Assembly: GCA_038045705.1 (NCBI GenBank)
Contig: JBBSXO010000006.1
Coordinates: forward strand, 32,001-96,000
From: Nanobdellota archaeon
Lineage (GTDB): Archaea > Nanobdellota > Nanobdellia > Pacearchaeales > GW2011-AR1
Reading direction: 5' to 3'
Length of the DNA stretch: 64,000 nt
A program made the position numbers and the translations under genes. The notes under the pieces are model-generated. The model made no database searches, was not told the DNA's origin, and worked only from the letters and a program-made list of their open reading frames with translations. Positions 33,512 to 62,073 of the stretch are shown piece by piece (within the stretch, counting starts at the first letter, position 1; the number at the start of each line of letters is the position of its first letter).

Positions 33512-33583
33512 GCTCGTCTAGTATATCGGTTAGTACATGGCCCTGTCGCGGCCAAGAGCCGGGTTCGATTCCCGGGACGGGCG
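33512..33583 (+). tRNA. tRNA-Asp(GTC), integration target
   Basis: GCTCGTC/GACGGGC acceptor stem, TGGCC-CTGTCGC-GGCCA anticodon arm, CCGGG-TTCGATT-CCCGG T arm, discriminator G. Confidence 0.96.
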
Positions 33584-33584
33584 T
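33572..33584 (+). repeat. attL core (13 bp CCGGGACGGGCGT)
   Basis: tRNA 3' end, identical to 63240-63252. Confidence 0.9.
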
Positions 33585-33586
33585 TA

Positions 33587-33633
33587 CCCCATCTTGCGAT
33601 TTTAATGAGATGGAATATACAAGTTTTATACAA
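33587..33633 (+). repeat. Left terminal imperfect inverted repeat
   Basis: TACAAGTTTTATACAA (33618-33633) is the exact reverse complement of 63185-63200; CCCCATCTTGCGATT (33587-33601) matches the reverse complement of 63219-63233 at 13/15. Confidence 0.85.
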
Positions 33634-33666: not shown

Positions 33667-34839
33667 GTGAAACTTGATCCGTATAAACATAAAGAAAGAT
33701 ACATAGCTTGGAAGAATAAAATAGGTTCGGTTATTCCAGATATTACTATTCAAAATTCCCAGATAATTTTACAATATCTAAACGATATGGAAAGGGGTTT
33801 AAATGTCTCCATATTAAGCCAAAAAGGTCCGAGAAGTTATATTCGCCTTAATTCTTTAAGAGAAAAAATTATAGGATATGCAAAAAAGTTTAATGAATTA
33901 TATAATTTAGAAACAATTACAGATATCTCTGAAGACCAGTTACTTAATTTCTTTGCAGATATGAGAGATGGAGTTATTAAAAGAAAAGATGGTAAGGAGT
34001 ATCAATCTGTGGATACTTCTGCGCGTATATTCAAAGCATTCTGGCATTGGCATCAAAAAGTAAGCAGAAAAAAAGGGATTGAGATAAAAGATATTACCTT
34101 AGATCTAGATACAAAAGCAAAGAAACCTGATTGGGTTTACCTTACTGAAAAAGAGGTCAGGGTATTATGCGATAATGCTAAACCAGACTACAAGGCACTT
34201 ATAATGTTTCTTTTTGATACTGGAATTAGATCTCCTACAGAACTAATGAATGTTAAATTATCTGATTTATTTAATGATTGTAAAGAAGTTAATATTCGCG
34301 AAGAAACGAGTAAAACATTTGGGAGAAGAGTAAAATTAATGCTATGCTCCGATGCTATACGGGATTATATTGAAAGAAATGGGCTAAAAACCGATGATTA
34401 TTTATTTCCTATAACGCCTGCAAGAGTTAATGAATACTTGAAGAGACTTGCTAAAAGAATTTTTGGAGAAAAAATAACCCCTGCAGGTGCAAAATATTCT
34501 GAAATTACAATGTATGATTTTAGGCACATAGCATGTTGCTATTGGTTACCACGATATAAGTCAGAATCAGCCCTCAAATATAGATTTGGATGGAGAGATA
34601 GTGAGAAAATCCATTATTATTCAGAATTATTGGGTATGAGTGATACTATCTCTGAAGAAGACATGCTTTTAGATGTTACAAAGACTGAGATTGAAAAGAG
34701 TCTAAAAAAATCAGATCAAGAAAAAGAAATACTAAGTGACAGAGTAAGATCGCTAGAAAAAGAAATATCTGAGATGAAGAAAATATCTTTAGAACTTATA
34801 AGAGTCTCAACACCTAAGAATCAATATTTACTATCTTGA
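33667..34839 (+). CDS. Tyrosine recombinase/integrase
   Basis: DTGIRSP (R), ETSKT (K), YDFRH, FGW and HYY catalytic residues; C-terminal coiled coil; starts 83 bp after attL. Confidence 0.92.
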   Translation: MKLDPYKHKERYIAWKNKIGSVIPDITIQNSQIILQYLNDMERGLNVSILSQKGPRSYIRLNSLREKIIGYAKKFNELYNLETITDISEDQLLNFFADMRDGVIKRKDGKEYQSVDTSARIFKAFWHWHQKVSRKKGIEIKDITLDLDTKAKKPDWVYLTEKEVRVLCDNAKPDYKALIMFLFDTGIRSPTELMNVKLSDLFNDCKEVNIREETSKTFGRRVKLMLCSDAIRDYIERNGLKTDDYLFPITPARVNEYLKRLAKRIFGEKITPAGAKYSEITMYDFRHIACCYWLPRYKSESALKYRFGWRDSEKIHYYSELLGMSDTISEEDMLLDVTKTEIEKSLKKSDQEKEILSDRVRSLEKEISEMKKISLELIRVSTPKNQYLLS

Positions 34840-35041
34840 CTTTTTGTTTTGTATTAAGAATAGTATCAATTTTTTTATCCATTTCTAAAATAGTTAATTC
34901 TATTTTATTTAATTGAGGTATCTCTTTTATCTTCCTCCTACAAATTTCTGAGACAGATACTTTATTTTCTTCAGCAATTTTCTTCAATTTATCCAGCAAA
35001 TCAGTTTCAAGGTATAAATGAAGTTGAGAATTCTTTTTCAT
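34814..35041 (-). CDS. Ribbon-helix-helix/CopG-like DNA-binding protein
   Basis: QLHLYLETDLLDKLKKIAEENKVSVSEICR pattern. Confidence 0.7.
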   Translation of the reverse strand: MKKNSQLHLYLETDLLDKLKKIAEENKVSVSEICRRKIKEIPQLNKIELTILEMDKKIDTILNTKQKVKIVNIDS

Positions 35042-35109: not shown

Positions 35110-35685
35110 TCAGTGGTTAGTTCTTCCTCTAGAGTCATTATTAAATTTCTTGGTCTCATTGCCCCAGCAGTCCCAACCGCTAAAAGTTTCTCTTGCAAAT
35201 AATTCTATTCTAGGTAAATCTCCAAGTAATTCTACAATATTATTTCTTATTTGATCTGGTTTTCTACTATGCTCTCTTAATGGAGAAAGAACAACTTGTC
35301 TAACTCTATTAGATTTTCTGATTAATTTTCCTTTTAATCCTAATAAACATATTTCTGTATTTGCTCGAGTCCAATTACCAAGACCCATAAATGGAAGCCC
35401 ATCACGTTTATTGGTTTTAACCCAAGTAAATGCTACTGTAACATATCTAAAACCCCATTTCTTCAAAGTTTCAATACATTCAGATAAAATTGGGTAAGTT
35501 GCCCATAAGAAAAGAGCACAGTTTTCATCAGTGATCTGTTGAATTGGGAATTTCTGAATATCTTTAATTGGAACACAAGGATACTTTTTTGTCGCATTTG
35601 TTGTACTGTATTTCCAGGGAGGATCTGCATAGATAATATTGTATTTTTTATTAATATCTAACTTCCATAAAAAATCTTTTTTCAT
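35110..35685 (-). CDS. MT-A70 family adenine methyltransferase
   Basis: IYADPPW, LFLWAT, WVKTN, EHSRKP and RIELFAR motifs. Confidence 0.93.
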   Translation of the reverse strand: MKKDFLWKLDINKKYNIIYADPPWKYSTTNATKKYPCVPIKDIQKFPIQQITDENCALFLWATYPILSECIETLKKWGFRYVTVAFTWVKTNKRDGLPFMGLGNWTRANTEICLLGLKGKLIRKSNRVRQVVLSPLREHSRKPDQIRNNIVELLGDLPRIELFARETFSGWDCWGNETKKFNNDSRGRTNH

Positions 35686-35780: not shown

Positions 35781-35820
35781 TCTCCGATTGCCTATAAACA
35801 ATTTAGATCACAGCACAGAC

Positions 35821-36003
35821 ATGAAATTTTGCATTGTATGCGAAGCTGAAACTAAAGAAAGAGAGTTTTGCGAAAATTGTTTGACTTTCATAAAATGGAA
35901 GTACGAAAATAATTTTGAGGAACAGTTAGAAAGATTTCGTAAGCTGAAAGCCTACCTCGAAGATTGGCGTAACCAATCAACTGAAAAGGAGGTGGAAGAA
36001 TGA
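35821..36003 (+). CDS. Small zinc-finger protein, first gene of the transfer-like operon
   Basis: MKFCIVC...FCENC; ATGA overlap with the pilin gene; ATG 35821 preferred to the track TTG. Confidence 0.65.
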   Translation: MKFCIVCEAETKEREFCENCLTFIKWKYENNFEEQLERFRKLKAYLEDWRNQSTEKEVEE

Positions 36004-36329
36004 AGGTACAAAAACTTGTTAGCCTTTTACTTGTTGCATATATTTTTGCTTTGCAGATTGTTAGTGCTCAGTTTAATGGGACAATAACTCAGGAAGAACA
36101 GGAGACATTTGATACTATACTTGAACCAGTATTAAAAATATACAATTTAGTAAAGTATTCTGCGACTTTTATTGCAGTAATAATGCTTGTATTTGCTGGT
36201 ATAAGCTACATAACTAGTGGATCAAATCCTACAAAACGTGAAAGTTCCAAGAATACTATAATGTATGTGTTTATTGGACTTGCAATAATTTGGGCAGCAC
36301 CTTGGTTTGTGCAGTTTATAGTTAACTGA
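36000..36329 (+). CDS. VirB2/TrbC-like pilin
   Basis: Signal peptide, two hydrophobic helices around AGISYITSGSNPTKRESSK; AGGAGGTG Shine-Dalgarno at 35987-35994. Confidence 0.8.
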   Translation: MKVQKLVSLLLVAYIFALQIVSAQFNGTITQEEQETFDTILEPVLKIYNLVKYSATFIAVIMLVFAGISYITSGSNPTKRESSKNTIMYVFIGLAIIWAAPWFVQFIVN

Positions 36330-36331
36330 TT

Positions 36332-36733
36332 ATGAAAACTAAATTAACTAAAGCAGTAGGTACTCTTGCAATAGTATTTATGATTCTATTTTTGCTGTTG
36401 CAAGAGGCAACTGCCTGCCCATCGCGTTTGAGATGCTCTAATTTTACTAATATGGATAAAAGAAATGATTGCAACTATATTTGGTCTCAAACATCAGGTG
36501 CTGAAAGACAAGAGGCAGTATGTATTTTATGGGACCAAGAGTATGGATTTCCTGGATACAACCATTCCGTTTATCCTAATGCGGAATCCAATTTTACGTT
36601 TTCTCATAAAGAAATAGAAACAAGTAGATTTATTTTGTTTTTCAAAATAATTATATTTCTGTTATTTAATTATATCTTGTTTTCCATTCTAACTAAGACT
36701 TCATTCGTTAGAAGATGCCTTCCTGCGGGTTAG
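36332..36733 (+). CDS. Cys-containing membrane-anchored protein in the transfer-like operon
   Basis: N-terminal signal, four Cys in the ectodomain, C-terminal transmembrane helix. Confidence 0.65.
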   Translation: MKTKLTKAVGTLAIVFMILFLLLQEATACPSRLRCSNFTNMDKRNDCNYIWSQTSGAERQEAVCILWDQEYGFPGYNHSVYPNAESNFTFSHKEIETSRFILFFKIIIFLLFNYILFSILTKTSFVRRCLPAG

Positions 36734-37524
36734 TTAATCTTGGAGCTTGTCTCCCAGAGATGTTTTTTAATTTTATTTTTAATTTAATTAATGCTCCTGT
36801 TCAACCCTTCTTACAAGTAGTTCTTAATTTGCTCTCTGCAGAAGCTCATTTTTCTATCTTCCTTAGTTTATGGGTAATCATTGTTTATATGTTATCAATG
36901 TTTTACGCATTGCTTATCGTTGGAGTGGGTTTTAGTTTCCTTATCTCTGGCTATGACTTTGAGAAAAGAGAACAGACAAAGGAATGGTTGAGAAACATAA
37001 TAATTATGATAATCTTAATCCAATCCTCATTCTTTATCTACGGGTTAATTATGGATTTAGCTTCCACGATGACTTCTGCAGTTTTAAGTATTGTAAGCCC
37101 TAATTTCTTCAGTTTACAAGTTAGTAGCAGTCTTGGTTTGGGTTTAGCAATAACTTTACTCTTTGTTTATGTAATTACTTTAATTGTTACCATAATTGTC
37201 TTAACTCTAAGATATGCAATAGTTGCAATAGGAGTAGTTTTATTGCCTATTGGAATTTTCTTCTACTTTCTTTCACCGCTAAGATCTTTTGGTTCATTAA
37301 TCTTAAACATATTAGGAATGGCTATATTTATCACATTTTTTGATGCACTTTTACTCATAGGATTTTCTTCATTAATGAATGTTGAAATATTTGATCAGTT
37401 TCAAATTGTAATTTTAATAACTGCATTTTTGCTAATTGACATCTTAATGGTTGTTCTGTTATTTTTCGCAATAACTAAAGCTGCATTTGGAATTTATGAT
37501 AAATTTAGCAGGTGGAAGAAATAA
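36715..37524 (+). CDS. VirB6-like polytopic membrane protein
   Basis: About six hydrophobic helices; LRYAIVAIGVVLLPIGIFFY resembles the VirB6/TrbL core; lies between pilin and VirB4. Confidence 0.65.
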   Translation: MPSCGLVNLGACLPEMFFNFIFNLINAPVQPFLQVVLNLLSAEAHFSIFLSLWVIIVYMLSMFYALLIVGVGFSFLISGYDFEKREQTKEWLRNIIIMIILIQSSFFIYGLIMDLASTMTSAVLSIVSPNFFSLQVSSSLGLGLAITLLFVYVITLIVTIIVLTLRYAIVAIGVVLLPIGIFFYFLSPLRSFGSLILNILGMAIFITFFDALLLIGFSSLMNVEIFDQFQIVILITAFLLIDILMVVLLFFAITKAAFGIYDKFSRWKK

Positions 37525-38282
37525 TGGCTTATGAAATACCTCAACAACTAGAATACAAAGAGAAAATAATGTTTGGGTTAAATTTTAAGCAATTAGCTTA
37601 TCTTTTTATTTTTGCACCAATTCTATTTGTTATTTTTTTTAAGACTGCCTGGCATAATGCAATAAAGATATTTTTTATGTCAATTTTTGGAGGTTTAGCT
37701 ATAGGGTTTATCTTTCTTGATTTAGATAAACATCTTCAAAATTGGTTTTACTGGTATAAATCAAAGAAGTTAGAGTTAGATCATAAATTAGCCTTATTCA
37801 TACCAATAAAAGAAGTAAAAGATAGTTTGGTTATAACTAGGGATAATAGGAAACTAGCAATTATCAAGATTACTCCTATTAATTTCTCAATTAAACATGA
37901 AGAGTCTAAGAATGCAATATCAATAGCATTTCAGAAATTTCTCAATGGTTTAGATTTTCCTATACAGATTATAATGAATACTGAACACCTTGATCTACGA
38001 GATTATTTTGCAGAAGTTGAAAGAAAGATAAAAGACTCCAAACAATTTAGATATTTGTTTGAAGGTTACAAGAGACATCTAGAGTCAATAACTAAAGAAA
38101 AAGATGTGATGAATAGGGTTTTTTATCTAGTTCTTACAGAAAGAACTGATATTAATATACAATTACAGATTTGTCAGACAAAATTATCTAATATTGGTTT
38201 AAAGAGTTTGAGACTAAAAGATAATGAATTAAAAGAATTGCTTAGAAGATTTTTCTTAGCAAGGAGAAATCATGCTAAGTAA
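37524..38282 (+). CDS. PrgI/VirB3-like protein with soluble C-terminal extension
   Basis: AYEIPQQLEYKEKIMFGLNFKQL PrgI-like start, two helices, then PINF...LNGLDFPIQI. Confidence 0.7.
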   Translation: MAYEIPQQLEYKEKIMFGLNFKQLAYLFIFAPILFVIFFKTAWHNAIKIFFMSIFGGLAIGFIFLDLDKHLQNWFYWYKSKKLELDHKLALFIPIKEVKDSLVITRDNRKLAIIKITPINFSIKHEESKNAISIAFQKFLNGLDFPIQIIMNTEHLDLRDYFAEVERKIKDSKQFRYLFEGYKRHLESITKEKDVMNRVFYLVLTERTDINIQLQICQTKLSNIGLKSLRLKDNELKELLRRFFLARRNHAK

Positions 38283-40581
38283 AAAAGAAAGACCTAAAGA
38301 AAATACGGAATTTTTACCTTTAAAGATAGAAAACACCCCCAGTTATCTTAAAATAACAGACGGAATAAAAGAACCAATCTTTAGTAGAACAATTTATGCT
38401 CATGGATATCCTAGAAGTGTAGAAACTGGATTTTTGGACAAAATAATTAGCACAATGGGTAACTTTGATCTTTCTATGCACATTGAACCTTTTGATATAG
38501 AAACAATGATGATCTTTCTAAACAAAGAACTTCAAAAACAAGGCTCTGACCTCTATACAGCTAAGGCAAAAAACATTCTTAGCCCGAGTCTTGAGATAAA
38601 GTACAAAGACACAAAAGCAGTCTTAGAAAATCTCCAAAAAGGTAAGGATAAATTGTTTAACGTAAGTCTTTACATAAATTGTAGAGCTAAATCTAAAGAA
38701 GATCTGGATCTTTTAACTAAATTAATACAAGCCGAACTTAACTCGCTACTGATAATCCCTAAAGTACCAAATTTTAGGATGGCTCAGGGTTTCCAGTCAT
38801 CTTCTCCTTTAGCCATGAATAAACTTAAGCAAATAAGAAGTGTGCCTACTGAAGCATTATCTGCATTCTTTCCGTTTACTTCTTCATTTCTTCAAGCAGA
38901 TAAAACAGGAGTATGGTTAGGGCAAAATAAGAATAATATTCCCATAATAAAGGATATTTTCAATCTAAGTAACCCAAATGGTTTGTGTTTAGCTAGTTCG
39001 GGATCTGGTAAAAGCTATATGGCTAAACTCCTTATTTCACGTTATTTGCTTAATGGAACTAATGTAATGATAATTGACCCGCAAGGTGAGTACAAAGCTC
39101 TTGTAAAGCGATTTAATGGCCAATTAATCGATTTAAGCACGCACTCTGAGACAATAATTAATCCTTTAGATTTGATGGGTCATGACTATCCCGAAAAGCG
39201 TTTAGCTTTAATCGATTTGATGCATCTAATGCTTGGAGATCTTAGCGATCCACAAAAAGCTATTCTAGAAAAGGCAATAACAACATCTTATGAAGAAAGA
39301 GGAATTTATATGAATAAAGTAGTTTCTTGGAGCAGAAAGCCTCCAATCATTGAAGATGTTCTAAATGTATTGAAGAAAGATGAAAAGAAAGCTACTCAAA
39401 TAGAAAAGACTACAATAAGAAGCCTCATAAATCGTCTAGATGGTTATGTAAATGGAGTATTTTCTTTTCTTAATCAGGAAACTAAGATTAACTTTGATAA
39501 TCAATTTGTATGTTTTGATATAGGAAATCTGCCAAAACAAATCAAACCCCTAATGATGTTTATGGTTTTAGATTATATTTACATGAAAATGAAGAAAGAC
39601 TTGAATAGAAAACTCTTGGTTATCGATGAAGCTTGGGCACTTCTAAGGCAAACTCATGAAGCATCTTATGTATTTGAGATAGTAAAAACATGTCGTAAGT
39701 TCAATCTAGCTTTATTTTTGATTAATCAAGAAGTTGAAGGTATGCTTGATTCAGAAGCGGGTAAATCTGTGTTAGCAAATAGTTCTTACACTCTCTTAAT
39801 GCGTCAAAAGCCAGCCGTAATAAGAAATATTCAGAAAACATTTTTTCTAAGTGACTCAGAAGTCAACCATTTACTTACGGCTGGCGTGGGAGAAGGAATT
39901 TTGGTAATGGAGGATGATCATTCTGAAATAAAAATCATAGCTTCTCCTGAAGAACATAATATTATAACTACGAAGCCGGATGAGTTATTAACCAATCAAA
40001 AGAAAGTAAGTGAAAAAGAGCGTCTTCAGCTATTACAAGAACAATATGATTTACGGAAAGAAAAAAGAGACGAAAGACAAAAAATAGAAATAAAGATAGA
40101 CAAAGATGTAGGATGTGTTAAACTAAAAGACATATTAAAAGATGAAGTAAACTACCTCAAAAATTTAGGGTATAAGATTTACAGAAGTAAGAGCATCCTA
40201 AGCAATAAAACAGAAAGTTATTTGATAGAACAAAAGAAAACAGAAAGCCCGCAACATATTTTTATGGTAAAAGATATTTCAGACTATTTGAAAAAGTTTA
40301 CAGATAAGGTTAGAATATATGAAACTGTGCAACCAGATATAGTTTTCGAGATAAATGAAAAGAAATATGCTATTGAAGTGGAAACAGGTAGTTTATTAAA
40401 ATCAAATAAAAAAGCATTGAAAGATAAAATAGAATTACTAAATAAAAAATATAAAGATAGATGGTTTTTTGTCGTAACTAATAGAAATATTGCATCAAAA
40501 TATTCAGAATTAGGTAAAACTTATGATAAAAGATATATTAATACATTATTAAAACGCTTAATTGTAGAAAATAGCCAGTGA
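38272..40581 (+). CDS. virB4: VirB4-family ATPase with C-terminal PD-(D/E)xK-like nuclease domain
   Basis: Walker A ASSGSGKS, IIDPQGEY, INPLD, Walker B VIDEAW, RKFN, Q; tail ESPQH...PDIVF...AIEVETG. Confidence 0.88.
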   Translation: MLSKKERPKENTEFLPLKIENTPSYLKITDGIKEPIFSRTIYAHGYPRSVETGFLDKIISTMGNFDLSMHIEPFDIETMMIFLNKELQKQGSDLYTAKAKNILSPSLEIKYKDTKAVLENLQKGKDKLFNVSLYINCRAKSKEDLDLLTKLIQAELNSLLIIPKVPNFRMAQGFQSSSPLAMNKLKQIRSVPTEALSAFFPFTSSFLQADKTGVWLGQNKNNIPIIKDIFNLSNPNGLCLASSGSGKSYMAKLLISRYLLNGTNVMIIDPQGEYKALVKRFNGQLIDLSTHSETIINPLDLMGHDYPEKRLALIDLMHLMLGDLSDPQKAILEKAITTSYEERGIYMNKVVSWSRKPPIIEDVLNVLKKDEKKATQIEKTTIRSLINRLDGYVNGVFSFLNQETKINFDNQFVCFDIGNLPKQIKPLMMFMVLDYIYMKMKKDLNRKLLVIDEAWALLRQTHEASYVFEIVKTCRKFNLALFLINQEVEGMLDSEAGKSVLANSSYTLLMRQKPAVIRNIQKTFFLSDSEVNHLLTAGVGEGILVMEDDHSEIKIIASPEEHNIITTKPDELLTNQKKVSEKERLQLLQEQYDLRKEKRDERQKIEIKIDKDVGCVKLKDILKDEVNYLKNLGYKIYRSKSILSNKTESYLIEQKKTESPQHIFMVKDISDYLKKFTDKVRIYETVQPDIVFEINEKKYAIEVETGSLLKSNKKALKDKIELLNKKYKDRWFFVVTNRNIASKYSELGKTYDKRYINTLLKRLIVENSQ

Positions 40582-51040: not shown

Positions 51041-51487
51041 ATGAAAATTAAAGTATTATTCTATATCTCTTTATTAGTGATAGCTTCTTTATTTTTGATC
51101 CAGAATAGCTCAGCTAGCCCAGTGCCTAACGCTATTATGCCAGATTTAGTATTTACAAATATAACTTATAAGATCTCTTTTATTAATACAACTAATTCTG
51201 TAACCTATTGGGATGTAAGAGTTATAGGGACATTAACAAATAACGGGTCAATCTTCGCTACTTCTTCTACTAGCTCGAGTGGATTATCAAGAGTTGGAAG
51301 CACTTCTGGCTACGGGCAAGCTATTCCAACGCCTTCAATAATGCCTAGGGTAAGCACAAAAGTTAGATGGAATTTTGTAGGATATACTGGGCAATATTCT
51401 ATGTGGTTTCATGCAGATGTTTTTAACAATGTAACTGAATTTGATGAAACTAATAATTTTATTGGCACAATTATAACTCTCCCTTAA
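51041..51487 (+). CDS. CARDB-like secreted protein
   Basis: PDLVF start and DVFNNVTEFDETNN end. Confidence 0.75.
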   Translation: MKIKVLFYISLLVIASLFLIQNSSASPVPNAIMPDLVFTNITYKISFINTTNSVTYWDVRVIGTLTNNGSIFATSSTSSSGLSRVGSTSGYGQAIPTPSIMPRVSTKVRWNFVGYTGQYSMWFHADVFNNVTEFDETNNFIGTIITLP

Positions 51488-52010
51488 TAAATTTTGATGA
51501 ATTCATCATATTTTGTGCAGCTTTCAAGAAAGTTAAATCTCTATCTCTAATAAATTTACCTTCAACTTTAGTAGGCTTATCATTTTCAAAAGTTTCAATA
51601 GCTTCATCTAAAGTCATCCAAACTAACTCAAACTCTTCAATCATTTCTTTCTCAGTAAATTGAGGTTTTCCTTTAGATAAAATCTTTCCAATATAACAAT
51701 AAGATATCTGTTTCATATCAAAACCCCATTTGAAATTTTTATCAGAACGATATTCTACAATCTTACCAACTTCAGATTTTATCTCCATTTTAGCTCCGAC
51801 TTCCTCAAGAGCCTCTCTTAGCAAAGCATTCTCTTTTGTTTCCCCTTCATCTATGCCTCCGCCTGGAAGCTTATGAAAATTTCCGCTTGCAACAAACAAT
51901 ATTGGAACTAAACCATTTTCATCAAAAAGAACAGCTCTTGAAGCCTCACGAAGTTTAATATTAGAATTCTCTTTAAAATCAGGATCTTTAAACTCTTTAA
52001 GAAGTCTCAT
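51471..52010 (-). CDS. NUDIX hydrolase
   Basis: Nudix box GGIDEGETKENALLREALEEVG. Confidence 0.9.
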   Translation of the reverse strand: MRLLKEFKDPDFKENSNIKLREASRAVLFDENGLVPILFVASGNFHKLPGGGIDEGETKENALLREALEEVGAKMEIKSEVGKIVEYRSDKNFKWGFDMKQISYCYIGKILSKGKPQFTEKEMIEEFELVWMTLDEAIETFENDKPTKVEGKFIRDRDLTFLKAAQNMMNSSKFIKGEL

Positions 52011-52810
52011 TTCAAATTTCCATATTTAGATAACAAATTACCTAGCTGTTCTTTTCTTTGACTAAGCCCAGCATATTTTTTCTCCTTAAAATAATGGCAA
52101 TAATAAATATCCTGTAATAACCAGTTTAAGAAGATAAAATCTTGGTATTTTTCATCCCAAAATTGAGTTGAAGATATAGAAGAGTATCCTTTCCTAAACT
52201 GTTTTTGTTCTTTAGGTTTCTTAAACCACTTAAAGAATGCCTTACCAATAGCAAAAAGCTTTGGTCTTTCAGCAATACTATCTATATCTACAAGATAAAC
52301 ATTACCATTTCTTAATCTAAGATTGCTACCATGAAGATCGTTTGCATCTAAAGTAAAAATGGGTTTTGTCTTCTTCAATAAAAACTGATATATTTTTTCT
52401 ACTCTTTCAATTTCTTCTTTAGGCAAGAGTTTAGCCTTTCTTACTTCATTCAAATTCTTCTCAAATCTTCGCGTAACGCTGCCATTAACTTTTATTTTAT
52501 TGATATAAGCACAAATTTTACCAACCCGATAAATTACTGATTTTGACTCTTTCTTAATAAGGTCTCTTCCTTCAATATATTCATAAAGAACATCTTTTCC
52601 AACTCTTCCTAAAAATTTAGGTAAAAAGCCGTACTTTTCAAGTTTATGAGATATTTCTTCGAAATATTTAGCTCTTTTAAGAGTCTTATATTTTCTTAAA
52701 ACATATTTTCTTCCTTCGTAAGTAAGTAAATGAACTTCACCGCTCCAACCCTCTCCACCATCATCAGAAGTTAAAACAGATATTTTACCATTTTTTAATA
52801 TATTTTTCAC
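52007..52810 (-). CDS. APH/choline-kinase-like phosphotransferase
   Basis: GEGWSG loop, YVLRK, DLHGSN and LVDID motifs. Confidence 0.75.
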   Translation of the reverse strand: MKNILKNGKISVLTSDDGGEGWSGEVHLLTYEGRKYVLRKYKTLKRAKYFEEISHKLEKYGFLPKFLGRVGKDVLYEYIEGRDLIKKESKSVIYRVGKICAYINKIKVNGSVTRRFEKNLNEVRKAKLLPKEEIERVEKIYQFLLKKTKPIFTLDANDLHGSNLRLRNGNVYLVDIDSIAERPKLFAIGKAFFKWFKKPKEQKQFRKGYSSISSTQFWDEKYQDFIFLNWLLQDIYYCHYFKEKKYAGLSQRKEQLGNLLSKYGNLK

Positions 52811-53403
52811 TTTAAATCTCCTAAGTGTTCATTATAATGTAATTTACTAATAAATAACTTTTTGTTCTTATCTAACTCTACAACAGTCACAGAAGCGTTA
52901 GGGCTACCTTTCTCAATAATCTCAGAATTATCTTTATTTTTAACCAACAGCATTTTTAACAAAGAAACTTTTGTTCCACCATGAGTCATAATTAAAACTG
53001 TTTTGTCTTTCCATTTTTTACTATTCTCTGTTAAAAATGTCTCTGCCCTTTTATCAACATCTTCAGGAGTTTCTCCGCCAGGAGGAGCTTTGTTAGGATT
53101 ATTCTTCCCCCATTCCTTTAACTCACCAGTAGGTTTACCTTCAAAAATACCCTTACCTCTTTCTCTCAAAAGATGAGAGTAATTAGCTTCCATTTTAATT
53201 ATCTTTAATAATGGAGCAATAGATTCTCTACATCTTCCCAAATCTGAACAATAAACTAAATCTATTTTTTCATTTTTCAAATAATTAGCTAATTTTTCGA
53301 CTTGCTTTAATCCAATCTCACTAAGTTTACCTTGATTTTGACCTTGAGTTATTCCTTCTTTATTTTCAACGGTTTCACCATGTCTTACAATAATTAATCT
53401 CAT
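52807..53403 (-). CDS. Histidine phosphatase family protein
   Basis: RHGET, SDLGR, LRE and THGG motifs. Confidence 0.92.
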   Translation of the reverse strand: MRLIIVRHGETVENKEGITQGQNQGKLSEIGLKQVEKLANYLKNEKIDLVYCSDLGRCRESIAPLLKIIKMEANYSHLLRERGKGIFEGKPTGELKEWGKNNPNKAPPGGETPEDVDKRAETFLTENSKKWKDKTVLIMTHGGTKVSLLKMLLVKNKDNSEIIEKGSPNASVTVVELDKNKKLFISKLHYNEHLGDLK

Positions 53404-54329
53404 TTTTCAGCCTCTAACCTTCTCTCTTTTTCCACGTTTAACATGGCTATATGGTTACCTATTGGAGTTAATGTTCTAAGCATCATAAGAAAATAATGGA
53501 TTATTATAGGATCTTCTTTTTTAATAAGCTCAAGGTTACTTTCAAAGTTTCCTTTTCTTGACTCAAAAAATTTCTGTACATTGTCCTTTTGATCATTAAC
53601 TACCGCATTGTAAAGTTCTTGATAATGATCTCTTACTTCCTTAAGGAGTCTTAATTCAGACTCACTTAATTTTGGCTTCTTTTGAGCATTTAGATGATCA
53701 TAAGAATAATTGATAAGAAGAGAGATTTCAATAATTGCATTAAAAAAGTCGTAAGCATACTTTGAGTTTACTGAATCAAATATTTCTCTTTTGTTTATCA
53801 ATCTCTTTGATAAATTACACAGCCTGCATAAAGTAGTGTGGAGTTCTTTTATCTCATAACTCATTTCAAAATTGCCTTTTTCACCTTCTTCTAACAAATA
53901 GTCTAACTTTGAAAGCAAAATCCACATTATCTTTCTTACAATTTGGCCATACTCTGAATCATCTGTATGTACCATACACTTAAGTCTACATACATTATTA
54001 TCACTCTTTACTAATTCAAGACCAGTTAATAATCTAAGATCTTCTCTGATTTGAGGCAATTGTTTAGGTGAAGTATATTTTATATTGATTTCATCAAATC
54101 CAGAAGTGTATAGGTGGCGGATAATTCTTCCAATATACCATTCACCTCCGTTTTCTAAAGGAATTGTTACTGGCTCAAAAGATTTGTCTTGTATTGATAT
54201 AACAAGCTTTCCACGTGAAGGTTCTACATTAACTAATTGTCCTTGTTTGAGATTATTATTTTTTACCCAGTTAGATGGAAGCGAGACAGTGAGAGTACCT
54301 TCTCCGTGCTTTACAACTTTTCTCTTCAT
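53400..54329 (-). CDS. AbrB-N/PhoU-like archaeal regulator
   Basis: RKVVKHGEGTLTVSLPSNWV AbrB-like N-terminus; LYTSGFDEI; helical C-terminus. Confidence 0.8.
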   Translation of the reverse strand: MKRKVVKHGEGTLTVSLPSNWVKNNNLKQGQLVNVEPSRGKLVISIQDKSFEPVTIPLENGGEWYIGRIIRHLYTSGFDEINIKYTSPKQLPQIREDLRLLTGLELVKSDNNVCRLKCMVHTDDSEYGQIVRKIMWILLSKLDYLLEEGEKGNFEMSYEIKELHTTLCRLCNLSKRLINKREIFDSVNSKYAYDFFNAIIEISLLINYSYDHLNAQKKPKLSESELRLLKEVRDHYQELYNAVVNDQKDNVQKFFESRKGNFESNLELIKKEDPIIIHYFLMMLRTLTPIGNHIAMLNVEKERRLEAEK

Positions 54330-54350
54330 AGTTCGAGAAATATAAGTTCT

Positions 54351-54419
54351 TTATTTAAATTTATGGTTATGTACACATATTTATACAATGTGTGTTTATA
54401 CACACAATAAGTATATAAT
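54351..54419. promoter_or_regulatory. Divergent promoters with operator-like palindrome
   Basis: TGTGTGT-TTAT-ACACACA at 54389-54406, between a minus-strand TTTAAATA and a plus-strand TATATAAT (54412-54419). Confidence 0.6.
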
Positions 54420-54440
54420 AAAACCTCAGATATATGAGTT

Positions 54441-55424
54441 ATGACTCAAACAATAGAGAATGTATTGGGAAGATTCCCTTTACGCGTTTCTATTACAGAT
54501 AATTGTAATCTATCTTGTGTTTTCTGTTCAAATGAAGGTTTAGGAGCAGAACGTAACCAAGTTTCAATGCAACCAGAAGATTTTCGATATTTAGCAACCA
54601 CATTAAGAGCTCATGGACTAAATCATATTTCTCTTTCGGGCGGAGACCCAACTGCTCATCCTGCTGCACGAGAAATGGTTGAAATTGCTAATGAATCAGA
54701 AATTCCTCAAAGATTCTACCATACCAATGGAATACTTCTTGGAAGAGATGGACTAGCAGATGCTCTTGAACAATTTAGTAAAATTGGAGTTTCACTACAT
54801 ACAACTGATTCCGCAAGATATAGCCAAATAACTGGGGGGAGACCAGCACATTATGATAAAGTAATGGCTGGATTAAAATCTCTAGGGGAAAAAGGATTGG
54901 GACAAAAAGTAGAGGTAAAACACGTTACTGTAAAAGGAATGAATGATGACTCTGAATCTTTGAGTGGTACTCTAGATTTATGCGCACAGTACGGTTTCAA
55001 ATTTAAATTTCTAAATTTTGAAGCAATTCATGCTGGACAGGTTGGTTTAGTGCAGAATGCAGAAGTAATTAGACAAAGAGTTAGAGATTTAGGAGCGGTT
55101 CATCTTCCTGACCAAGGAGGAGTTTTCAGAGGACAGGATTCTTACTTACCAATTCAATGGTTTAGTTACAAAGGAACTAAAGGCGTTGTTATAGATGTTG
55201 GTTGCGGAAGACCTGAGGTTTGCAGAAGCTGTCATGATTCTAATGAAATATATGTAACTCCCAAGCTCAGCATAAAGCCTTGCAAAATGAGCAGTCATGA
55301 AATTTCTCTTAAAGAAGCAATTGATCGTAGAGATGAAGGAGCACTTATAAGTTCAATAATGGAATCAAGAGCATTCTTACGCACACAACCAGGATTAGGT
55401 AAAACCTATTGGGAGCAAAGATGA
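54441..55424 (+). CDS. MoaA-like radical SAM enzyme (divergent)
   Basis: LRVSITDNCNLSCVFC, SGGDP, TNG and C-terminal CRSC...KPC cluster ligands; no terminal GG. Confidence 0.85.
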   Translation: MTQTIENVLGRFPLRVSITDNCNLSCVFCSNEGLGAERNQVSMQPEDFRYLATTLRAHGLNHISLSGGDPTAHPAAREMVEIANESEIPQRFYHTNGILLGRDGLADALEQFSKIGVSLHTTDSARYSQITGGRPAHYDKVMAGLKSLGEKGLGQKVEVKHVTVKGMNDDSESLSGTLDLCAQYGFKFKFLNFEAIHAGQVGLVQNAEVIRQRVRDLGAVHLPDQGGVFRGQDSYLPIQWFSYKGTKGVVIDVGCGRPEVCRSCHDSNEIYVTPKLSIKPCKMSSHEISLKEAIDRRDEGALISSIMESRAFLRTQPGLGKTYWEQR

Positions 55425-56098
55425 ATAAAAAATTAGTAATGTTATATACAAAGTTCCCTGAAATTGGAAAATCAAAAACAAGAATAGCAAGAGAAAGCTC
55501 AGAATTATTCGCGTATATTGTAAGTCTTTGCACACTTAAGGATACTATAAACAAAGTGAGCAATTCAAAAAGTTATGATTTTATTGCAGTAGTTAATAGT
55601 AAAGAAGAGTCTCAATTGTTCAGAGAGAAACTTGGAATTAATGTTTATGTTTTAAATGAATCTTTATTACAAAGCGACCAAAGTCAAAGATTTTCATTTC
55701 TATTTTCCAATTTTAAGAAAAGCTATGAAAAAATAATTTTAATCCCAAGTGATGTTCCCTCAATCGCCGAATCTAGCCTAATTAACGCATTTAATATTTT
55801 GGAAAATAATGATTATGTATTTGGCCCAGAATACAATGGAGGAGTATACCTTATCGGAATGAATAAAAATCCAGACAATATTTTTGATAGAGTTAGATGG
55901 AGTACTGAAAATTCTTTTAAAGATTTAGTAAATAATAGTAAAAACAAAAGTTATCTGTTAAAATTAAAGGGTGATCTCAATAAATTACAAGACTTAAATT
56001 TATTTAAAGAAGACATAGAAAAAAGATCCCCATTACTCTATGAGTTTCTTGCTAATAATTTCTACAAAGGGGTCAAAATTAATTATGCTTACAATTGA
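55421..56098 (+). CDS. DUF2064/CofC-like GT-A fold transferase
   Basis: KFPEIGKSKTRI, SDVP, GPEYNGGVYLIG, W-ST and DL..L.DL motifs; ATGA overlap with the radical SAM gene. Confidence 0.8.
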   Translation: MNKKLVMLYTKFPEIGKSKTRIARESSELFAYIVSLCTLKDTINKVSNSKSYDFIAVVNSKEESQLFREKLGINVYVLNESLLQSDQSQRFSFLFSNFKKSYEKIILIPSDVPSIAESSLINAFNILENNDYVFGPEYNGGVYLIGMNKNPDNIFDRVRWSTENSFKDLVNNSKNKSYLLKLKGDLNKLQDLNLFKEDIEKRSPLLYEFLANNFYKGVKINYAYN

Positions 56099-56714
56099 AC
56101 TATTTGGTATTTCAAGAACAGGTAAAACTTCTACTTTGAGAAACCTTGCTTCACATTTCGAAGCAAATGGAGAAAGATGCGAAATTATTGGAAGAGCCCC
56201 AATAGATTTCAAAAGTTGTAGAGATCTTGAAGACTTTCATCAAAAAATGCTATTATACTTAGAACAAAGAATTCCAGAGGCTCAAGAAAGAAAACCACAT
56301 TATCTGTTGATGGACAGAGGACCTTATGATAGGCAAGTTATGCTAGAAGCAGACCATCAAGACGGAAAAGTAGGAGATCAAGTTTATAGAGATGCAACCC
56401 AAAGACTGCTTAGTTTAGAACCAAAAATTGATATTCCTTTAATTTTTCTTGTAGATCCTACAACTTCTCTAGCTAGAATTGGTTCACAAAGAGACGAAGG
56501 CCTAGACTATTCTCATATGTGTGTTGGGCTTAACACGAGAGACAATGTTGCTGAATTAGGTAGATTATTTGATCAGTATTCTGCTTTACAAAGGGCAAAG
56601 AAAGGCATTATAAGCGTTTATACTGGCGGAAGTGCAACAGATACATTACAATCAGCCTTAAGGGTAATAGCATCGACAAAAGTTAAAAACAATGGAGAAC
56701 ATACACAATCATGA
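56085..56714 (+). CDS. P-loop nucleoside monophosphate kinase-like protein
   Basis: IELFGISRTGKTS Walker A and LLMDRG; start at ATG 56085. Confidence 0.75.
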   Translation: MLTIELFGISRTGKTSTLRNLASHFEANGERCEIIGRAPIDFKSCRDLEDFHQKMLLYLEQRIPEAQERKPHYLLMDRGPYDRQVMLEADHQDGKVGDQVYRDATQRLLSLEPKIDIPLIFLVDPTTSLARIGSQRDEGLDYSHMCVGLNTRDNVAELGRLFDQYSALQRAKKGIISVYTGGSATDTLQSALRVIASTKVKNNGEHTQS

Positions 56715-57223
56715 AAGAAATAGAGATTAAACTAAAATACAGCGATGAAAATGCGCTAAGAAAGAAAATAAAAAGTATTGGAAAACACACAGAGACCTAT
56801 GAGATTGTTGATTGTTATTATGGAAGAGATGGCGAAAACATGAAGACTGCTGAAAAATTGCTAAGGATAAGAACAAAGAAAGGAGTATCTGAGCTTACAT
56901 TTAAAGGTAAAAAAGAGACAGAAGGAAATGTCTGGGAAAGAGTTGAGATAAATGTTCCAATTGGGGATTCTGAGAAGATGGAACTTGTTCTAAAAAACCT
57001 TGGACTAAAAAGAATTCTAAAAAATCGAACAATTAGAGAATACTGGAACATTAATGGAACAGAATTAGGAATTATGAAAATTAAAGAACCAGCAGAAGTT
57101 GATTTTGTAGAGATCGAAGGTAAAACTAAAGAAGATGTTGAAAGAGTTACTGGCTTGTTTAAAGGAATTTTAGAGCCTATTGGTAAAGACCATTTCAAAA
57201 AATTAGATGAGGCTAACAAATAA
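56711..57223 (+). CDS. CYTH domain protein (class IV adenylate cyclase/triphosphatase)
   Basis: EIEIK, LRIR, LTFKG, R.E and FVEIE motifs. Confidence 0.9.
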   Translation: MKEIEIKLKYSDENALRKKIKSIGKHTETYEIVDCYYGRDGENMKTAEKLLRIRTKKGVSELTFKGKKETEGNVWERVEINVPIGDSEKMELVLKNLGLKRILKNRTIREYWNINGTELGIMKIKEPAEVDFVEIEGKTKEDVERVTGLFKGILEPIGKDHFKKLDEANK

Positions 57224-57795
57224 TGTTGCCAGAGATATTTATCATAAGGCATCCAGAAACAATCAATAATAAAGAAAAGATCATTGAAGATCCTATGGGA
57301 GGAGATTTATCTGAATATGGTAAATCTCAGATACCTGATGCAGTTAAGAGTTTATTATCTTTAGAAATTTCTAAAGTATACTCTAGCGATTCTGCACGAT
57401 GTAAAGAACTTGCTGAAGCATTTTCTAATGAATCTGAGATAGATATCCATTATGATCCTATGCTTCGCGAAGTCAATAGTGGAGATTGGATCGGCATGAA
57501 AAAAATAGAAGTTAAAAAGCTTATAGCACAGAATAAAAGACCAAGAAATGGAGAAAATTTAGATCAATTAATGCAAAGAGCTAAAGTTGTCCTTAACAAA
57601 TTAATTCAAGAAAAAGGTAGAATATTATTAATCACTCATGGTTGTCTAAGTAAAATGATTATAGGTGCAACAATGAATATGGGTGCTTATGAAGCAGATG
57701 AAAAAGTAAGCATAAAAAATTGTCAGATAATAAAATTGGATTTCAAAAATATAGGGTCAAAACAGATTCCACTTATTCAAAACAGAAAAAATTAG
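57223..57795 (+). CDS. Histidine phosphatase family protein
   Basis: RHPET, SSDSAR, LRE and ITHG motifs. Confidence 0.88.
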   Translation: MLPEIFIIRHPETINNKEKIIEDPMGGDLSEYGKSQIPDAVKSLLSLEISKVYSSDSARCKELAEAFSNESEIDIHYDPMLREVNSGDWIGMKKIEVKKLIAQNKRPRNGENLDQLMQRAKVVLNKLIQEKGRILLITHGCLSKMIIGATMNMGAYEADEKVSIKNCQIIKLDFKNIGSKQIPLIQNRKN

Positions 57796-57818
57796 AGGTA
57801 TAGTGATTGGATTAATTA

Positions 57819-58133
57819 ATGAGGAACACACTACAAAAAGAGAAAAGTAAAGAAAATCTTTTATCTGAGATGCTCTCATATCTCGAACCAAAGGAAACTA
57901 TCCAAATTAATGGGAAACTTTCTTATAAGGAAAGTTTAGGTTCTTGGAATGTAATTCAATTGCAAAAAGAGATTATTGATTTATTTCCTCAACTTAGAGA
58001 GAAAAGAAGTAATTTTGGTTATACTATGTTCTATAATCGCTCGTTTAAGGAATCGAGAAAAATAATTGATGAGCTAGAAAAAAACGGGGTTGTTCCTATT
58101 TTTCTGTTGTTAGGTAAGGTAAAAGAAAGATAG
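57819..58133 (+). CDS. Hypothetical protein
   Basis: 104-aa ORF; no recognised motif. Confidence 0.6.
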   Translation: MRNTLQKEKSKENLLSEMLSYLEPKETIQINGKLSYKESLGSWNVIQLQKEIIDLFPQLREKRSNFGYTMFYNRSFKESRKIIDELEKNGVVPIFLLLGKVKER

Positions 58134-59205: not shown

Positions 59206-59775
59206 ATGAAAAAAGAATGCGTTGAACATTACAATAAGATTAAGATAAGTAATATCAGCATACTTAGTTCTAACAAAAAGTTAAGCGACTATGAGAGAAA
59301 TTTAAAACTAGAATATGCCCGAGAAGAGCAATACGAGTCTGACTCATTTAATCTTAAACTTGCAGATAGTAGATGTAACTTGGGTGGTTGGCGTCTCTGG
59401 TTTATGTGTCAAGGGTGCGAAAAGAAAGTTGGAACCCTATTCTACAAATATGACCCTCAAAATCTAAGATGTAGAAACTGTTTAAATCTTACTTATGAGG
59501 CAAGACAGAATAAAAGAAAAGAGGCATTTCATCTTATTGGTAATGCAATAAGGCTTAAACAAAAATATGATTTAATAGGAGAAAGGCTGTTAAGGAAAGG
59601 AATACATGCAAAGACTCGCCTCAGACTTTGGTCAGAAAAAACAATATTAGGGGAAGAACTAATAGAAGTTCTAGCCTTACAAAAAGAAGTCTTATCCAAT
59701 AATTCTGTTAAATATGGAAAAAGAATGCAAGAACTAATAGAAAATAAAAAATTAGATTTTACAACAAGACCATAA
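59206..59775 (+). CDS. Zinc-finger protein of mobile elements
   Basis: GGWRLWFMCQGC...CRNCLNLTY. Confidence 0.65.
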   Translation: MKKECVEHYNKIKISNISILSSNKKLSDYERNLKLEYAREEQYESDSFNLKLADSRCNLGGWRLWFMCQGCEKKVGTLFYKYDPQNLRCRNCLNLTYEARQNKRKEAFHLIGNAIRLKQKYDLIGERLLRKGIHAKTRLRLWSEKTILGEELIEVLALQKEVLSNNSVKYGKRMQELIENKKLDFTTRP

Positions 59776-61071: not shown

Positions 61072-61377
61072 ATGGAAATTGTTAAACAAATATTGGCAAC
61101 AGTTCTATTTTTAGCAATGGCTTATGTTGCCTTTGATGTAAGCTTATTATTTTTTATTTTCTTCATTTTAGGTGGAATATATTCTCTGATATTTCATGAT
61201 GCTTGGGAAAGACCAGGGGTTCCAATTTTATGGTTTGCTGGAGGGCTTATTTGTAGAGTAGCTTTATCAGGAATATTGCTTCCAATCTTGAAATATGAAA
61301 ATTTAATAGATCTAGTTATAGGATTATTTGCTTTCGGAGTAGTTTATTTAATAGGTCACAGAGTTAGGAATGGATGA
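61072..61377 (+). CDS. Small membrane protein
   Basis: Mostly hydrophobic 101-aa ORF. Confidence 0.65.
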   Translation: MEIVKQILATVLFLAMAYVAFDVSLLFFIFFILGGIYSLIFHDAWERPGVPILWFAGGLICRVALSGILLPILKYENLIDLVIGLFAFGVVYLIGHRVRNG

Positions 61378-61962: not shown

Positions 61963-61977
61963 AATCAAAGGATTAGG

Positions 61978-61999
61978 TTTATACAAGTCGTTTAAAAAA
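61978..61999 (+). repeat. Internal copy of the left-end/integrase-promoter motif
   Basis: TTTATACAAGTCGTTTAAAAAA matches 33625-33646 at 21/22. Confidence 0.75.
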
Positions 62000-62073
62000 T
62001 ATCAAAAATGCCACAAAACTAATAAATAAAATGAATGGACAAGACTTAATTACATCTAAATGTTAGAGAAAAT

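Follow-up and report, generated by a model that had tools for sequence, protein, structure and literature searches.

What can a type IV secretion system (T4SS)-like module do for an archaeal element that appears complete and encodes a single ATPase with neither a coupling protein nor a relaxase? This question is raised by a 29.7-kb element that is integrated at a tRNA-Asp gene within a 64,000-nucleotide stretch of a Nanobdellota archaeon contig (JBBSXO010000006.1), which we refer to as the window. Canonical conjugative elements, according to a CONJScan-style definition, combine VirB4 with a type IV coupling protein (T4CP) and a relaxase. The original prediction, made from the letters of the window, described a six-gene operon at 35821-40581 and proposed that it encodes a reduced, single-ATPase machine in a DPANN-like archaeon or a secretion device for the neighboring cargo. 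The operon is real, as six open reading frames (ORFs), all on the + strand, are tightly packed within the region 35788-40581, with gaps of at most 2 nt and four overlaps. Beyond this first reading, we found that virB4 is split, that its product is fused to a nuclease-like domain, and that integrase-linked elements of Nanoarchaeota (Woese-/Pacearchaeota-type DPANN) form a family of which this module is the conserved core.

The ATPase at the end of the operon lies in an ORF of 769 aa (38272-40581, + strand) that matches the VirB4 models NF045971 (E 4e-87) and NF045975 (E 3e-75), as well as PF19044 (E 1e-24), PF12846 (E 2e-13), and the VirB4 C-terminal domain in PDB 4ag5 (E 1e-33). Its Walker A motif (GSGKS, residue 244) and Walker B motif (LLVIDE, residue 448) are both intact, which indicates a VirB4/TraG-type ATPase. 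The preceding open frame, which had been labeled PrgI-like, spans 37512-38282, and relatives start at its fifth codon, an ATG at 37524 that overlaps the preceding stop as TAATG. The product of 37524-38282 (+ strand) contains a PrgI/VirB3-like segment of two transmembrane (TM) helices (TM 19-44 and 45-68; PF12666 (PrgI), 27.6 bits against a cut-off of 27) and the first ~150 residues of the VirB4 N-terminal domain, the remainder of which is encoded together with the P-loop ATPase at 38272-39960 (+ strand). The VirB4_plasma model NF045975, which comprises 894 positions, aligns through positions 3-276 to the first ORF and through positions 299-893 to the second. Because this full-length match, N-terminal domain included, is collinear across both ORFs, we conclude that they are the two halves of one split virB3-virB4 gene, which corrects the labels PrgI-like and VirB4 of the original prediction. 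VirB4 is single-copy in its own genome and scores under every named-subfamily equivalog cut-off (CD1110, 293.1 bits against 325; Mbov_0397, 253.5 against 590; TraC-F, 151.6 against 567; VirB4_CagE, 99.3 against 643). By its profile scores, the ATPase is a VirB4-family protein that is a member of no named subfamily. Two other identities were considered and dropped. The sole PHROGs match of VirB4 is phrog_2666 ('terminase large subunit'), which would suggest packaging and which we take to reflect shared P-loop ancestry, and a defense reading (PADLOC 'mad8', E 3e-20; ATPase plus nuclease) was rejected because of the collinearity of the VirB3 and N-terminal domains and the presence of a pilin/VirB6 operon.

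The two ORFs are translationally coupled. With AAGGAG located 5 nt upstream of its ATG, the second begins in the +1 frame while 11 nt of the first are still to come, and the frame change falls within a linker of variable length. Across a sample of 401 phylum genomes, the VirB4-bearing open frame is typically ~970-1050 aa, and in 18 of 20 mapped loci one ORF of 969-1035 aa covers both window ORFs; the other two (L044 and L047) are split elsewhere, after the VirB3 part. The same split as in the window was found in all five of the closest species (73-76% identity; L072-L075 and L104), where an N part of 209-280 aa and a C part of 748-798 aa lie in +1 frame with an overlap of 11-56 nt and each overlap region features a purine-rich GGAG-type motif. 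A word-indexed search returned 13 clusters of 746-798 aa beside ~20 of 960-1075 aa. Furthermore, independently assembled contigs of four runs from two groundwater-metagenome studies, of which two runs may be the source of this assembly, cover 38208-38512 without substitution or indel. None of the 10 sequencing runs listed is recorded as RNA, which speaks neither for nor against expression. An assembly error can thus be ruled out, and because the split is conserved in five sister species and identical in independent contigs, we conclude that it is an inherited arrangement rather than decay. On these grounds, the split arrangement is presumably functional.

Beyond the ATPase, VirB4 residues ~565-769 (39961-40581, + strand) comprise a C-terminal extension that features a linker helix, a small alpha/beta module, and a nuclease-like core. 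This domain is present on all 21 VirB4s that we aligned, with E658, H662, D689, E702, E704, and G706 (769-aa numbering) invariant and K719 nearly so. At the level of sequence, the CoiA_nuc family (PF06054) matches 4 of the 21 members (best E 2e-4), with the window copy not among them, and a comparison with PDB sequences returned chance-level rows alone (E 0.29 or more). The AlphaFold2 (AF2) model of the domain has a predicted local distance difference test (pLDDT) score of 88. When this model was compared with known structures, Foldseek gave no row at E 0.001 or better, and its list was headed by YaeQ, Cdn1, PspGI, EndoMS, and VC1899. VIA-align returned VC1899 (Z 8.7; 104 residues aligned, root-mean-square deviation (rmsd) 3.0), Hjc (Z 7.9; 96 aligned, rmsd 3.5), and Can2 (Z 7.6), and the top rows of the fold searches also include Bax1 and Nt.BspD6I. 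Most of these top rows we take to be PD-(D/E)XK nucleases, which suggests that the VirB4 C-terminus is nuclease-like, with the restriction-endonuclease-like alpha/beta core of the PD-(D/E)XK superfamily. A profile of the domain detected 944 cluster representatives at E 0.001 or better; among the best 150 of these, 18 are at least 750 aa and so VirB4-sized by length alone, and many of the remainder of the 150 are 170-370 aa and match the nuclease part alone. The available text of PMC13663708 describes CoiA as an endonuclease of the PD-(D/E)XK type, structure-specific and partnered by a hexameric helicase. The conserved fusion to a nuclease-like domain is our best clue to what the machine handles, and it points to DNA as the probable substrate.

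The operon also encodes a pilin and a polytopic membrane protein. The pilin (36000-36329, + strand, 109 aa) is of the VirB2/TrbC type, as it scores over the cut-offs of PF18895 (49.3 bits against 26.6, E 5e-13) and PF04956 (34.6 against 27.9, E 2e-8) and consists of a signal peptide and two hydrophobic helices (hydrophobic segments 3-27, 47-75, and 86-109); it also weakly matches NF045849 (E 1e-5), the model of Mbov_0395, a pilin-like protein of the Mycoplasma integrative and conjugative element (ICE). In the window, as in most of the 20 mapped loci, the gene for the polytopic protein (36715-37524, + strand, 269 aa, ~6 TM helices) immediately precedes virB3-virB4. Neither this protein nor 15 family members match the VirB6/TrbL families at E up to 1, and a profile of the 15 retrieved nothing from PDB sequences at E up to 10; the N-terminal part resembles the pilin family, with PF18895 matched by 8 of the 15. 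The top five Foldseek rows for its AF2 model (pLDDT 83.6) are all TrwI/VirB6 of plasmid R388 (E 0.04-0.08), which also occupies the top three rows of VIA-align (Z 9.6, 9.6, and 9.0; 211-218 residues aligned, rmsd 5.5-6.6). The first unrelated row below these scores Z 7.1, and DotA scores Z 7.0; among helical proteins, Z values under ~13 may stem from a common arrangement. The VirB6-like label of the original prediction finds no counterpart in VirB6/TrbL sequence matches, and the likeness, which comes from fold, is suggestive rather than proof.

Two small proteins complete the operon. The first gene (35821-36003, + strand) encodes a zinc-ribbon-like protein of 60 aa from its ATG, with a CxxC...CxxC pattern and no family match in Pfam, NCBIfam, or PHROGs. 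The third (36332-36733, + strand) encodes a Cys-rich exported protein of 133 aa with four Cys, an N-terminal signal or TM segment, and a C-terminal TM segment; it likewise lacks a family match in these three collections, and the Atlas gave nothing usable. This gene fills a variable 'middle' slot that in other loci holds proteins of 120-466 aa or a fusion to the next gene, and the 'middle' proteins of 386-684 aa in relatives have no Pfam match.

We found no T4CP, relaxase, or replication protein (Rep) in the element, as originally predicted. None was detected by Pfam on 37 large ORFs at 33667-63999, by NCBIfam on 38 ORFs (the same set without 63415-63999 and with two small ones added), by PHROGs on 21 element ORFs, or by PADLOC on 22. 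Six-frame searches of the whole genome, each of which gave signal in its built-in control genomes, returned no match to the T4CP families PF02534 and PF12696, and no match at E up to 0.1 to the relaxase families PF03432, PF08751, PF01076, PF02486, and PF03389; PF10412 and PF01580 returned sub-cut-off P-loop stretches alone, the best of them on VirB4 itself. Homologous elements could in principle carry these genes, which would mark the present copy as decayed. However, among 232 neighbors of at least 110 aa around 20 loci, Pfam found not one T4CP, relaxase, or Rep, and the same was true of 76 ORFs of 400-1000 aa around another 41 loci. The 232 were drawn from 438 ORFs by setting aside those below 110 aa and the T4SS clusters, with nine 'middle' proteins added, and the 76 from 677 by size after setting aside T4SS and integrase homologs as well as L096 and L099, which duplicate L047 and L048. 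Among the 401 phylum genomes, PF02534 exceeded its cut-off in 13, where all matches but one are short P-loop stretches, and the sole long match belongs to G226, which does not encode this VirB4.

The limits of the element are defined by a 13-nt repeat of the 3' end of the tRNA-Asp gene (GTC; 33512-33583, + strand; ARAGORN). The 13-mer CCGGGACGGGCGT occurs at 33572-33584, where it comprises the last 12 nt of the tRNA gene and one further base, and again at 63240-63252 (both + strand), with no third copy in the 844,273-bp genome. This attachment (att) core surfaced solely by an exact-match scan; no repeat copy of the tRNA-Asp 3' end was returned with 12-14 nt seeds or by 22-nt and 26-nt patterns. 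Beside the tRNA gene lies a tyrosine recombinase gene (33667-34839, + strand; PF00589, E 2e-9; phrog_1, E 8e-18), which together with the unique direct repeat constitutes an integration module. The element thus has the integration module of a mobile element, and the T4CP and relaxase of the canonical definition were not found. We also observed imperfect inverted arms directly inside both cores (33584-33633 and 63185-63240), which have in common an exact 16-nt stretch, TACAAGTTTTATACAA, in opposite orientation; these may be candidate arm sites of the integrase.

Past the right core, a second integrase gene begins at 63431, the product of which agrees with the first in 243 of 395 aligned columns (62% identity). 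Two elements therefore lie in tandem. The second was traced to the contig end (window 63431-64000; G000:C6, 95.2-117 kb; L002 and L003), and its far end lies beyond the contig. Its cargo includes type I restriction-modification (R-M), HEPN, B12-radical SAM, a nucleoside deoxyribosyltransferase-like gene, and a second copy of a 104-aa gene described below. Inspection of this neighbor, which had been suggested as a possible source of the missing functions, revealed no T4SS, T4CP, or relaxase up to the contig end. At the very end of the contig (L003:6379-6951, G000:C6) there is a weak, sub-cut-off match to the reverse transcriptase family RVT_1 (E 9e-5).

A search of DPANN genomes for the same module, as proposed with the original prediction, found it as a family of integrase-linked elements. 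VirB4 was matched at E 1e-80 or better in 58 of 400 other sampled phylum genomes (counted from the match table; the unpublished G243 and G396 are two of the 58), and 16 further genomes match weakly or in the C-terminal domain alone. Within the same family, 7 of 27 genomes encode the protein. Two matches were seen in several genomes. The pair in G241 (L042 and L043) shares 78% identity; the first 60 residues of these copies are identical and the nuclease domain is their most divergent part, a pattern that may point to recombination between elements residing in one genome. When species-representative genomes were scanned, they yielded 43 loci, the titles of which name Nanoarchaeota, Woesearchaeota, or Pacearchaeota except for several bins labeled as bacteria or Methanosarcinales. 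The seven of these that we checked (L077, L078, L085, L090, L101, L108, and L111, labeled Bacteroides, Bdellovibrionales, Babeliales, 'bacterium', or Methanosarcinales) have a DPANN-like locus G+C of 26-38%. They are probably mis-binned symbiont contigs, although transfer into hosts could also account for them.

Clustering of ORFs over 61 loci, many of which are cut by contig ends, placed VirB4 in 60, the pilin in 38, and the VirB6-like protein in 37 plus five fused forms. The remaining recurrent clusters are smaller and correspond to an N6_N4 DNA methyltransferase (18 loci), the integrase (17), the 104-aa gene (14), a ribbon-helix-helix (RHH) regulator (13), a ~455-aa 'middle' protein (13), the zinc-ribbon protein (9), and the Cys-rich protein (8). 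No large gene besides the VirB4 and pilin/VirB6-like operon clusters is conserved across the 61 loci. In the window, an MT-A70-type DNA methyltransferase gene (35110-35685, - strand; PF05063, E 2e-32; PADLOC MTase_II, E 1e-62) is divergent from the operon, with no restriction partner seen. Relatives have a DNA methyltransferase at the same position, namely the N6_N4_Mtase cluster or, in four loci, an MT-A70 enzyme, and where the left flank is present a DNA methyltransferase usually adjoins the operon.

How, then, might the module work? The data fit a family of integrative, probably self-transmissible elements whose minimal T4SS is of the monoderm/archaeal type. We give an even chance to the reading that the element is integrative and self-transmissible and that its machine has a single ATPase, VirB4, whose fused nuclease-like domain stands in for relaxase and T4CP. 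The reduced machine that had been proposed for a DPANN-like archaeon is borne out insofar as the copy is intact, has one ATPase, and is accompanied by no T4CP or relaxase that we could find. Orphan methyltransferases and ArdA fit this reading because element DNA must survive restriction in a new cell. In addition, the patchy, multi-copy, integrase-linked spread argues for a mobile element rather than a lineage-wide organ of host contact like that described for Patescibacteria in the available text of PMC12102498. There is precedent in the Ced/Ted systems, in which DNA is moved with a pilin, a VirB6-like protein, and one ATPase (PMC9905601, available text), and archaeal conjugative elements have no recognizable relaxase in the accounts available from PMC9905601 and PMC6563490. 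In the mechanism that we envision, the integrase would excise the element at the 13-nt core, and VirB3/VirB4 and the VirB6-like protein would build a short VirB2-type pilus or conduit across the single membrane, with the variable Cys-rich protein as a putative exposed, recipient-specific part. The nuclease module of each VirB4 subunit would bind and cut element DNA at the channel entrance, and the same VirB4 hexamer would drive the DNA out, such that one protein would cover jobs that in bacteria are divided among relaxase, T4CP, and VirB4. The orphan methyltransferase, or ArdA in one relative, would shield the DNA from restriction in the recipient, where the integrase would reinsert the element at tRNA-Asp.

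Several points weigh against this reading. The third motif of the nuclease-like domain is E-x-E rather than the canonical (D/E)-x-K, with Glu at the position of the canonical Lys; nuclease activity is therefore not assured, although K719 might substitute for the Lys of motif III. The Z values of the fold, at 7-9, are moderate. The genome is an assembly of 10 contigs that is 91.5% complete, the scans of relatives covered ORFs of at least 110 aa in the first set and of 400-1000 aa in the second, and sequence profiles can overlook a divergent relaxase or T4CP. In no system is VirB4 by itself known to translocate DNA. Finally, a similar T4SS without relaxase is proposed to function in host interaction, and not in conjugation, in Patescibacteria (PMC12102498, available text). 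We also raise, tentatively and as a doubtful possibility, the stronger proposal that one polypeptide replaces three bacterial functions, with a VirB3-VirB4 motor that, through its own fused structure-specific nuclease, would assemble the pilus, cut the DNA, and pump it without relaxase, coupling protein, or covalent pilot protein. If true, these DPANN elements would be the simplest self-transmissible DNA-transfer systems known and possibly an extant model for the stage that preceded the divergence of VirB4 and T4CP.

Alternatively, the T4SS could serve an episymbiont in contacting its host and taking up or delivering macromolecules, with the mobile element merely the carrier, which we regard as unlikely. 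The precedent for such a role is that the monoderm-type T4SS of Patescibacteria, mostly without relaxase, is argued to be co-opted for non-conjugative roles (PMC12102498, available text), and giant surface proteins of nanohaloarchaea bear VirB4-like ATPase domains proposed to act on hosts (PMC10266531, available text). The module also lies beside large surface-protein genes in the window and, with homologs of these genes, in 4 of 43 further loci (L074, L083, L099, and L104). However, BLASTP matched five of the six surface-protein genes of the window to no ORF in 20 related loci and the sixth to one, so these neighbors are not conserved; the secretion device for neighboring cargo that had been proposed is likewise not supported, and the N-termini of the surface proteins look like ordinary export signals. 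Moreover, the conserved fusion partner is a nuclease-like, DNA-directed domain, and the module, which is scattered over 58 of 400 sampled genomes and 7 of 27 within the family, is tied to integrases, methyltransferases, and defense cargo, rather than universal and chromosomal. Another option is import or exchange in the manner of Ced/Ted, whereby the carrier cell pulls in DNA from neighbors or its host and the nuclease processes what enters. Many nucleotide-synthesis genes are missing from DPANN archaea, to which imported DNA could be of use, and VirB4 has a weak NCBIfam match to CedD (NF053655, 45.4 bits against a cut-off of 600, E 5e-12). The part list without relaxase is as in Ced/Ted (PMC9905601, available text), and the named sequence family closest to the nuclease domain is CoiA, whose target in transformation is imported DNA (PMC13663708, available text). 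Yet the CedD match falls short of orthology to CedB/CedD, and the ATPase is far nearer to the VirB4s of conjugation (CD1110, 293 bits; Mycoplasma ICE, 253). The module is carried by integrase-bounded, multi-copy elements, unlike Ced, and the anti-restriction genes (orphan methyltransferases and ArdA) make most sense for element DNA that is exported. We therefore consider import quite unlikely.

Might the element instead conduct canonical conjugation with a T4CP and relaxase that we failed to recognize, because they are divergent, reside in small or unassigned ORFs, or act in trans from another replicon or the unassembled 8% of the genome? Candidates for such genes do exist, as the element ORFs 52007-52810, 53400-54329, 59206-59775, and 61072-63105 lack a family match, the 104-aa gene (14 of 61 loci) and a gene of 57-69 aa just downstream of VirB4 (eight loci) are conserved unknowns, UvrD-type helicases lie in or beside the operon in L059 and L058, and some Nanoarchaeota encode ORFs of 640-760 aa with weak PF02534 P-loop matches. 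However, VirB4 is the only conserved large gene that accompanies the module in 61 loci, the ORFs with weak PF02534 matches were not found in the own genome and lie on other contigs in the VirB4-bearing G134 and G057, and no relaxase has been recognized so far on any archaeal conjugative element according to the available text of PMC9905601 and PMC6563490. These considerations make canonical conjugation very unlikely. That the module is a decayed remnant, with virB4 frameshifted and no longer working, is the sort of explanation that the split itself brings to mind: one ORF in 18 of the 20 first-set relatives is here represented by 256 and 769 aa in different frames, and some relatives have in-frame stops (G327, G057, and G353). 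Nevertheless, decay is most improbable. Walker and nuclease residues are intact, all five closest species share the +1 split with its 11-56 nt overlap, the 13 clusters of 746-798 aa attest to it more widely, the break falls in the variable-length linker with AAGGAG 5 nt before the ATG of the second ORF, and the contigs of four runs show no indel.

We also noted features of the element and its relatives that lie outside the transfer module. A gene for a small RHH regulator of the CopG/Arc-like type (34814-35041, - strand) was recognized from weak, sub-cut-off matches to RHH_1/RHH_7 and ORF56 families. The 104-aa basic protein (window 57819-58133), which has no family match and is a candidate DNA-binding accessory factor, is among the most conserved genes of the family and is usually encoded a few kb downstream of VirB4. 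A block of nucleotide-chemistry genes (window 51471-58133) encodes NUDIX, two histidine phosphatases, a MoaA/viperin-like radical SAM protein, DUF2064, an AAA_28-like kinase, and CYTH; it shows synteny with the stretch right after VirB4 in the sister species L073 (12.4-17.9 kb) and may be a nucleotide-modifying defense or counter-defense module. Neighbors in related loci include type I R-M, Shedu, GmrSD, ABC-3C, ArdA, UvrD-type helicases, TFIIB, and DUF2779 proteins. The ArdA antirestriction protein is encoded at L052:14130-14633 (PF07275, E 8e-27). UvrD/PcrA-type helicases, which may be unwinding helpers for transfer, are encoded in or beside the T4SS operon at L059:5608-8040, L058:15721-17823, L094:8322-11006, and L098:3069-4679; the gene in L059 lies between the VirB6-like gene and virB4, and the helicase in L094 is fused to a PD-(D/E)XK domain. 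TFIIB homologs are encoded directly downstream of virB4 (L053:6449-7237, L059:12394-13191, and L061:7711-8502), each with a small partner gene of 84-90 aa (52 aa in L059). DUF2779 proteins of ~480-500 aa, with RNase H-like or Cas4-like signals, were found in 7 of 61 loci (L047, L056, L080, L098, L100, and L113). Elsewhere in Nanoarchaeota (e.g., G357:C3, G364:C4, G077:C10, and G146:C13), giant ORFs of 2,000-12,000 aa and ORFs of 640-760 aa carry short T4CP/VirB4-like P-loop matches and recall the SPEARE proteins of nanohaloarchaea (PMC10266531, available text).

The element family is significant because relaxase-free conjugation in archaea is an open question (PMC9905601 and PMC6563490, available text), for which it provides a testable candidate with a nuclease-like domain within the sole ATPase. 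Approximately one in seven sampled Nanoarchaeota genomes hosts such an element, which suggests that DPANN archaea with genomes below 1 Mb host widespread and apparently self-transmissible elements. These ferry R-M and other defense cargo and sometimes surface-protein modules, which bears on gene exchange among reduced symbionts. The part list of four or five proteins is attractive for structural work and could aid the development of DNA-delivery tools for uncultivated or genetically intractable archaea.

Comparison with known systems places the DPANN module among several relatives. Its C-terminal domain is like the PD-(D/E)XK nucleases CoiA_nuc, Hjc, and VC1899/Card1/Can2 in fold (Z 7.6-8.7) and in an invariant D...E-x-E, and differs from them in its fusion to a membrane-associated secretion ATPase, the replacement of the motif III Lys by Glu, the absence of CARF, and marginal sequence similarity. 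For the ATPase, the best sequence matches are to MPF-FATA systems of wall-less or monoderm bacteria (the C. difficile CD1110-family VirB4 and, in the Mycoplasma ICE, the VirB4 Mbov_0397 beside the pilin-like Mbov_0395), which also join a PrgI/VirB3 segment to VirB4 and have few parts suited to a single membrane. Bacterial MPF-FATA systems additionally encode a T4CP and either a relaxase or a DDE transposase. Unlike them, the DPANN element has an archaeal host, a nuclease-like domain on the VirB4 C-terminus, and a tyrosine integrase that would excise it at a tRNA gene, and our searches of DPANN elements found no T4CP or relaxase. With the Ced/Ted systems, as described in the available text of PMC9905601, the module shares a VirB2-like pilin, a VirB6-like protein, one ATPase of the VirB4/HerA class, the lack of relaxase and T4CP, and a single-membrane archaeal envelope. 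The same source presents Ced as a DNA-import system and HerA-NurA as its proposed DNA-processing machinery. The likeness to Ced/Ted is one of composition of the part list alone. Ced genes are chromosomal, induced by DNA damage, and species-wide, whereas the DPANN module resides on integrase-bounded elements with anti-restriction genes and has its nuclease-like domain as part of the motor itself.

The T4SS of Patescibacteria, members of the candidate phyla radiation (CPR), resembles the DPANN module in its monoderm-type VirB4, VirB2-like pilins, VirB3, and VirB6, in the ultra-small episymbionts that carry it, and in a relaxase that is mostly absent (PMC12102498, available text). The CPR system is, according to the same text, chromosomal, near-ubiquitous, and sometimes near dnaA, with frequent T4CP homologs far from virB4; in contrast, the DPANN module is patchy, integrase-linked, sometimes present twice per genome, and without T4CP. 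The word 'nuclease' occurs 0 times in the text of PMC12102498, its supplements aside, and our literature searches returned no account of this DPANN element family or of a VirB4-nuclease fusion, though those supplements, which lay outside the search, might list such fusions. Finally, the ICEs of Thaumarchaeota and the conjugative plasmids of Sulfolobus are, as the available text of PMC6563490 describes them, integrase-bounded, with VirB4, VirB6, and VirB3 homologs, R-M cargo, and no relaxase, all of which the DPANN elements share. The thaumarchaeal ICEs also have TFIIB homologs near their T4SS genes, as we observed in L053, L059, and L061. These elements and plasmids keep a pair of VirB4 and VirD4/TraG together with type IV pilus parts (PMC6563490, available text), whereas the DPANN elements feature one ATPase, a pilin of the VirB2 type, and the fusion of a nuclease-like domain to the motor.

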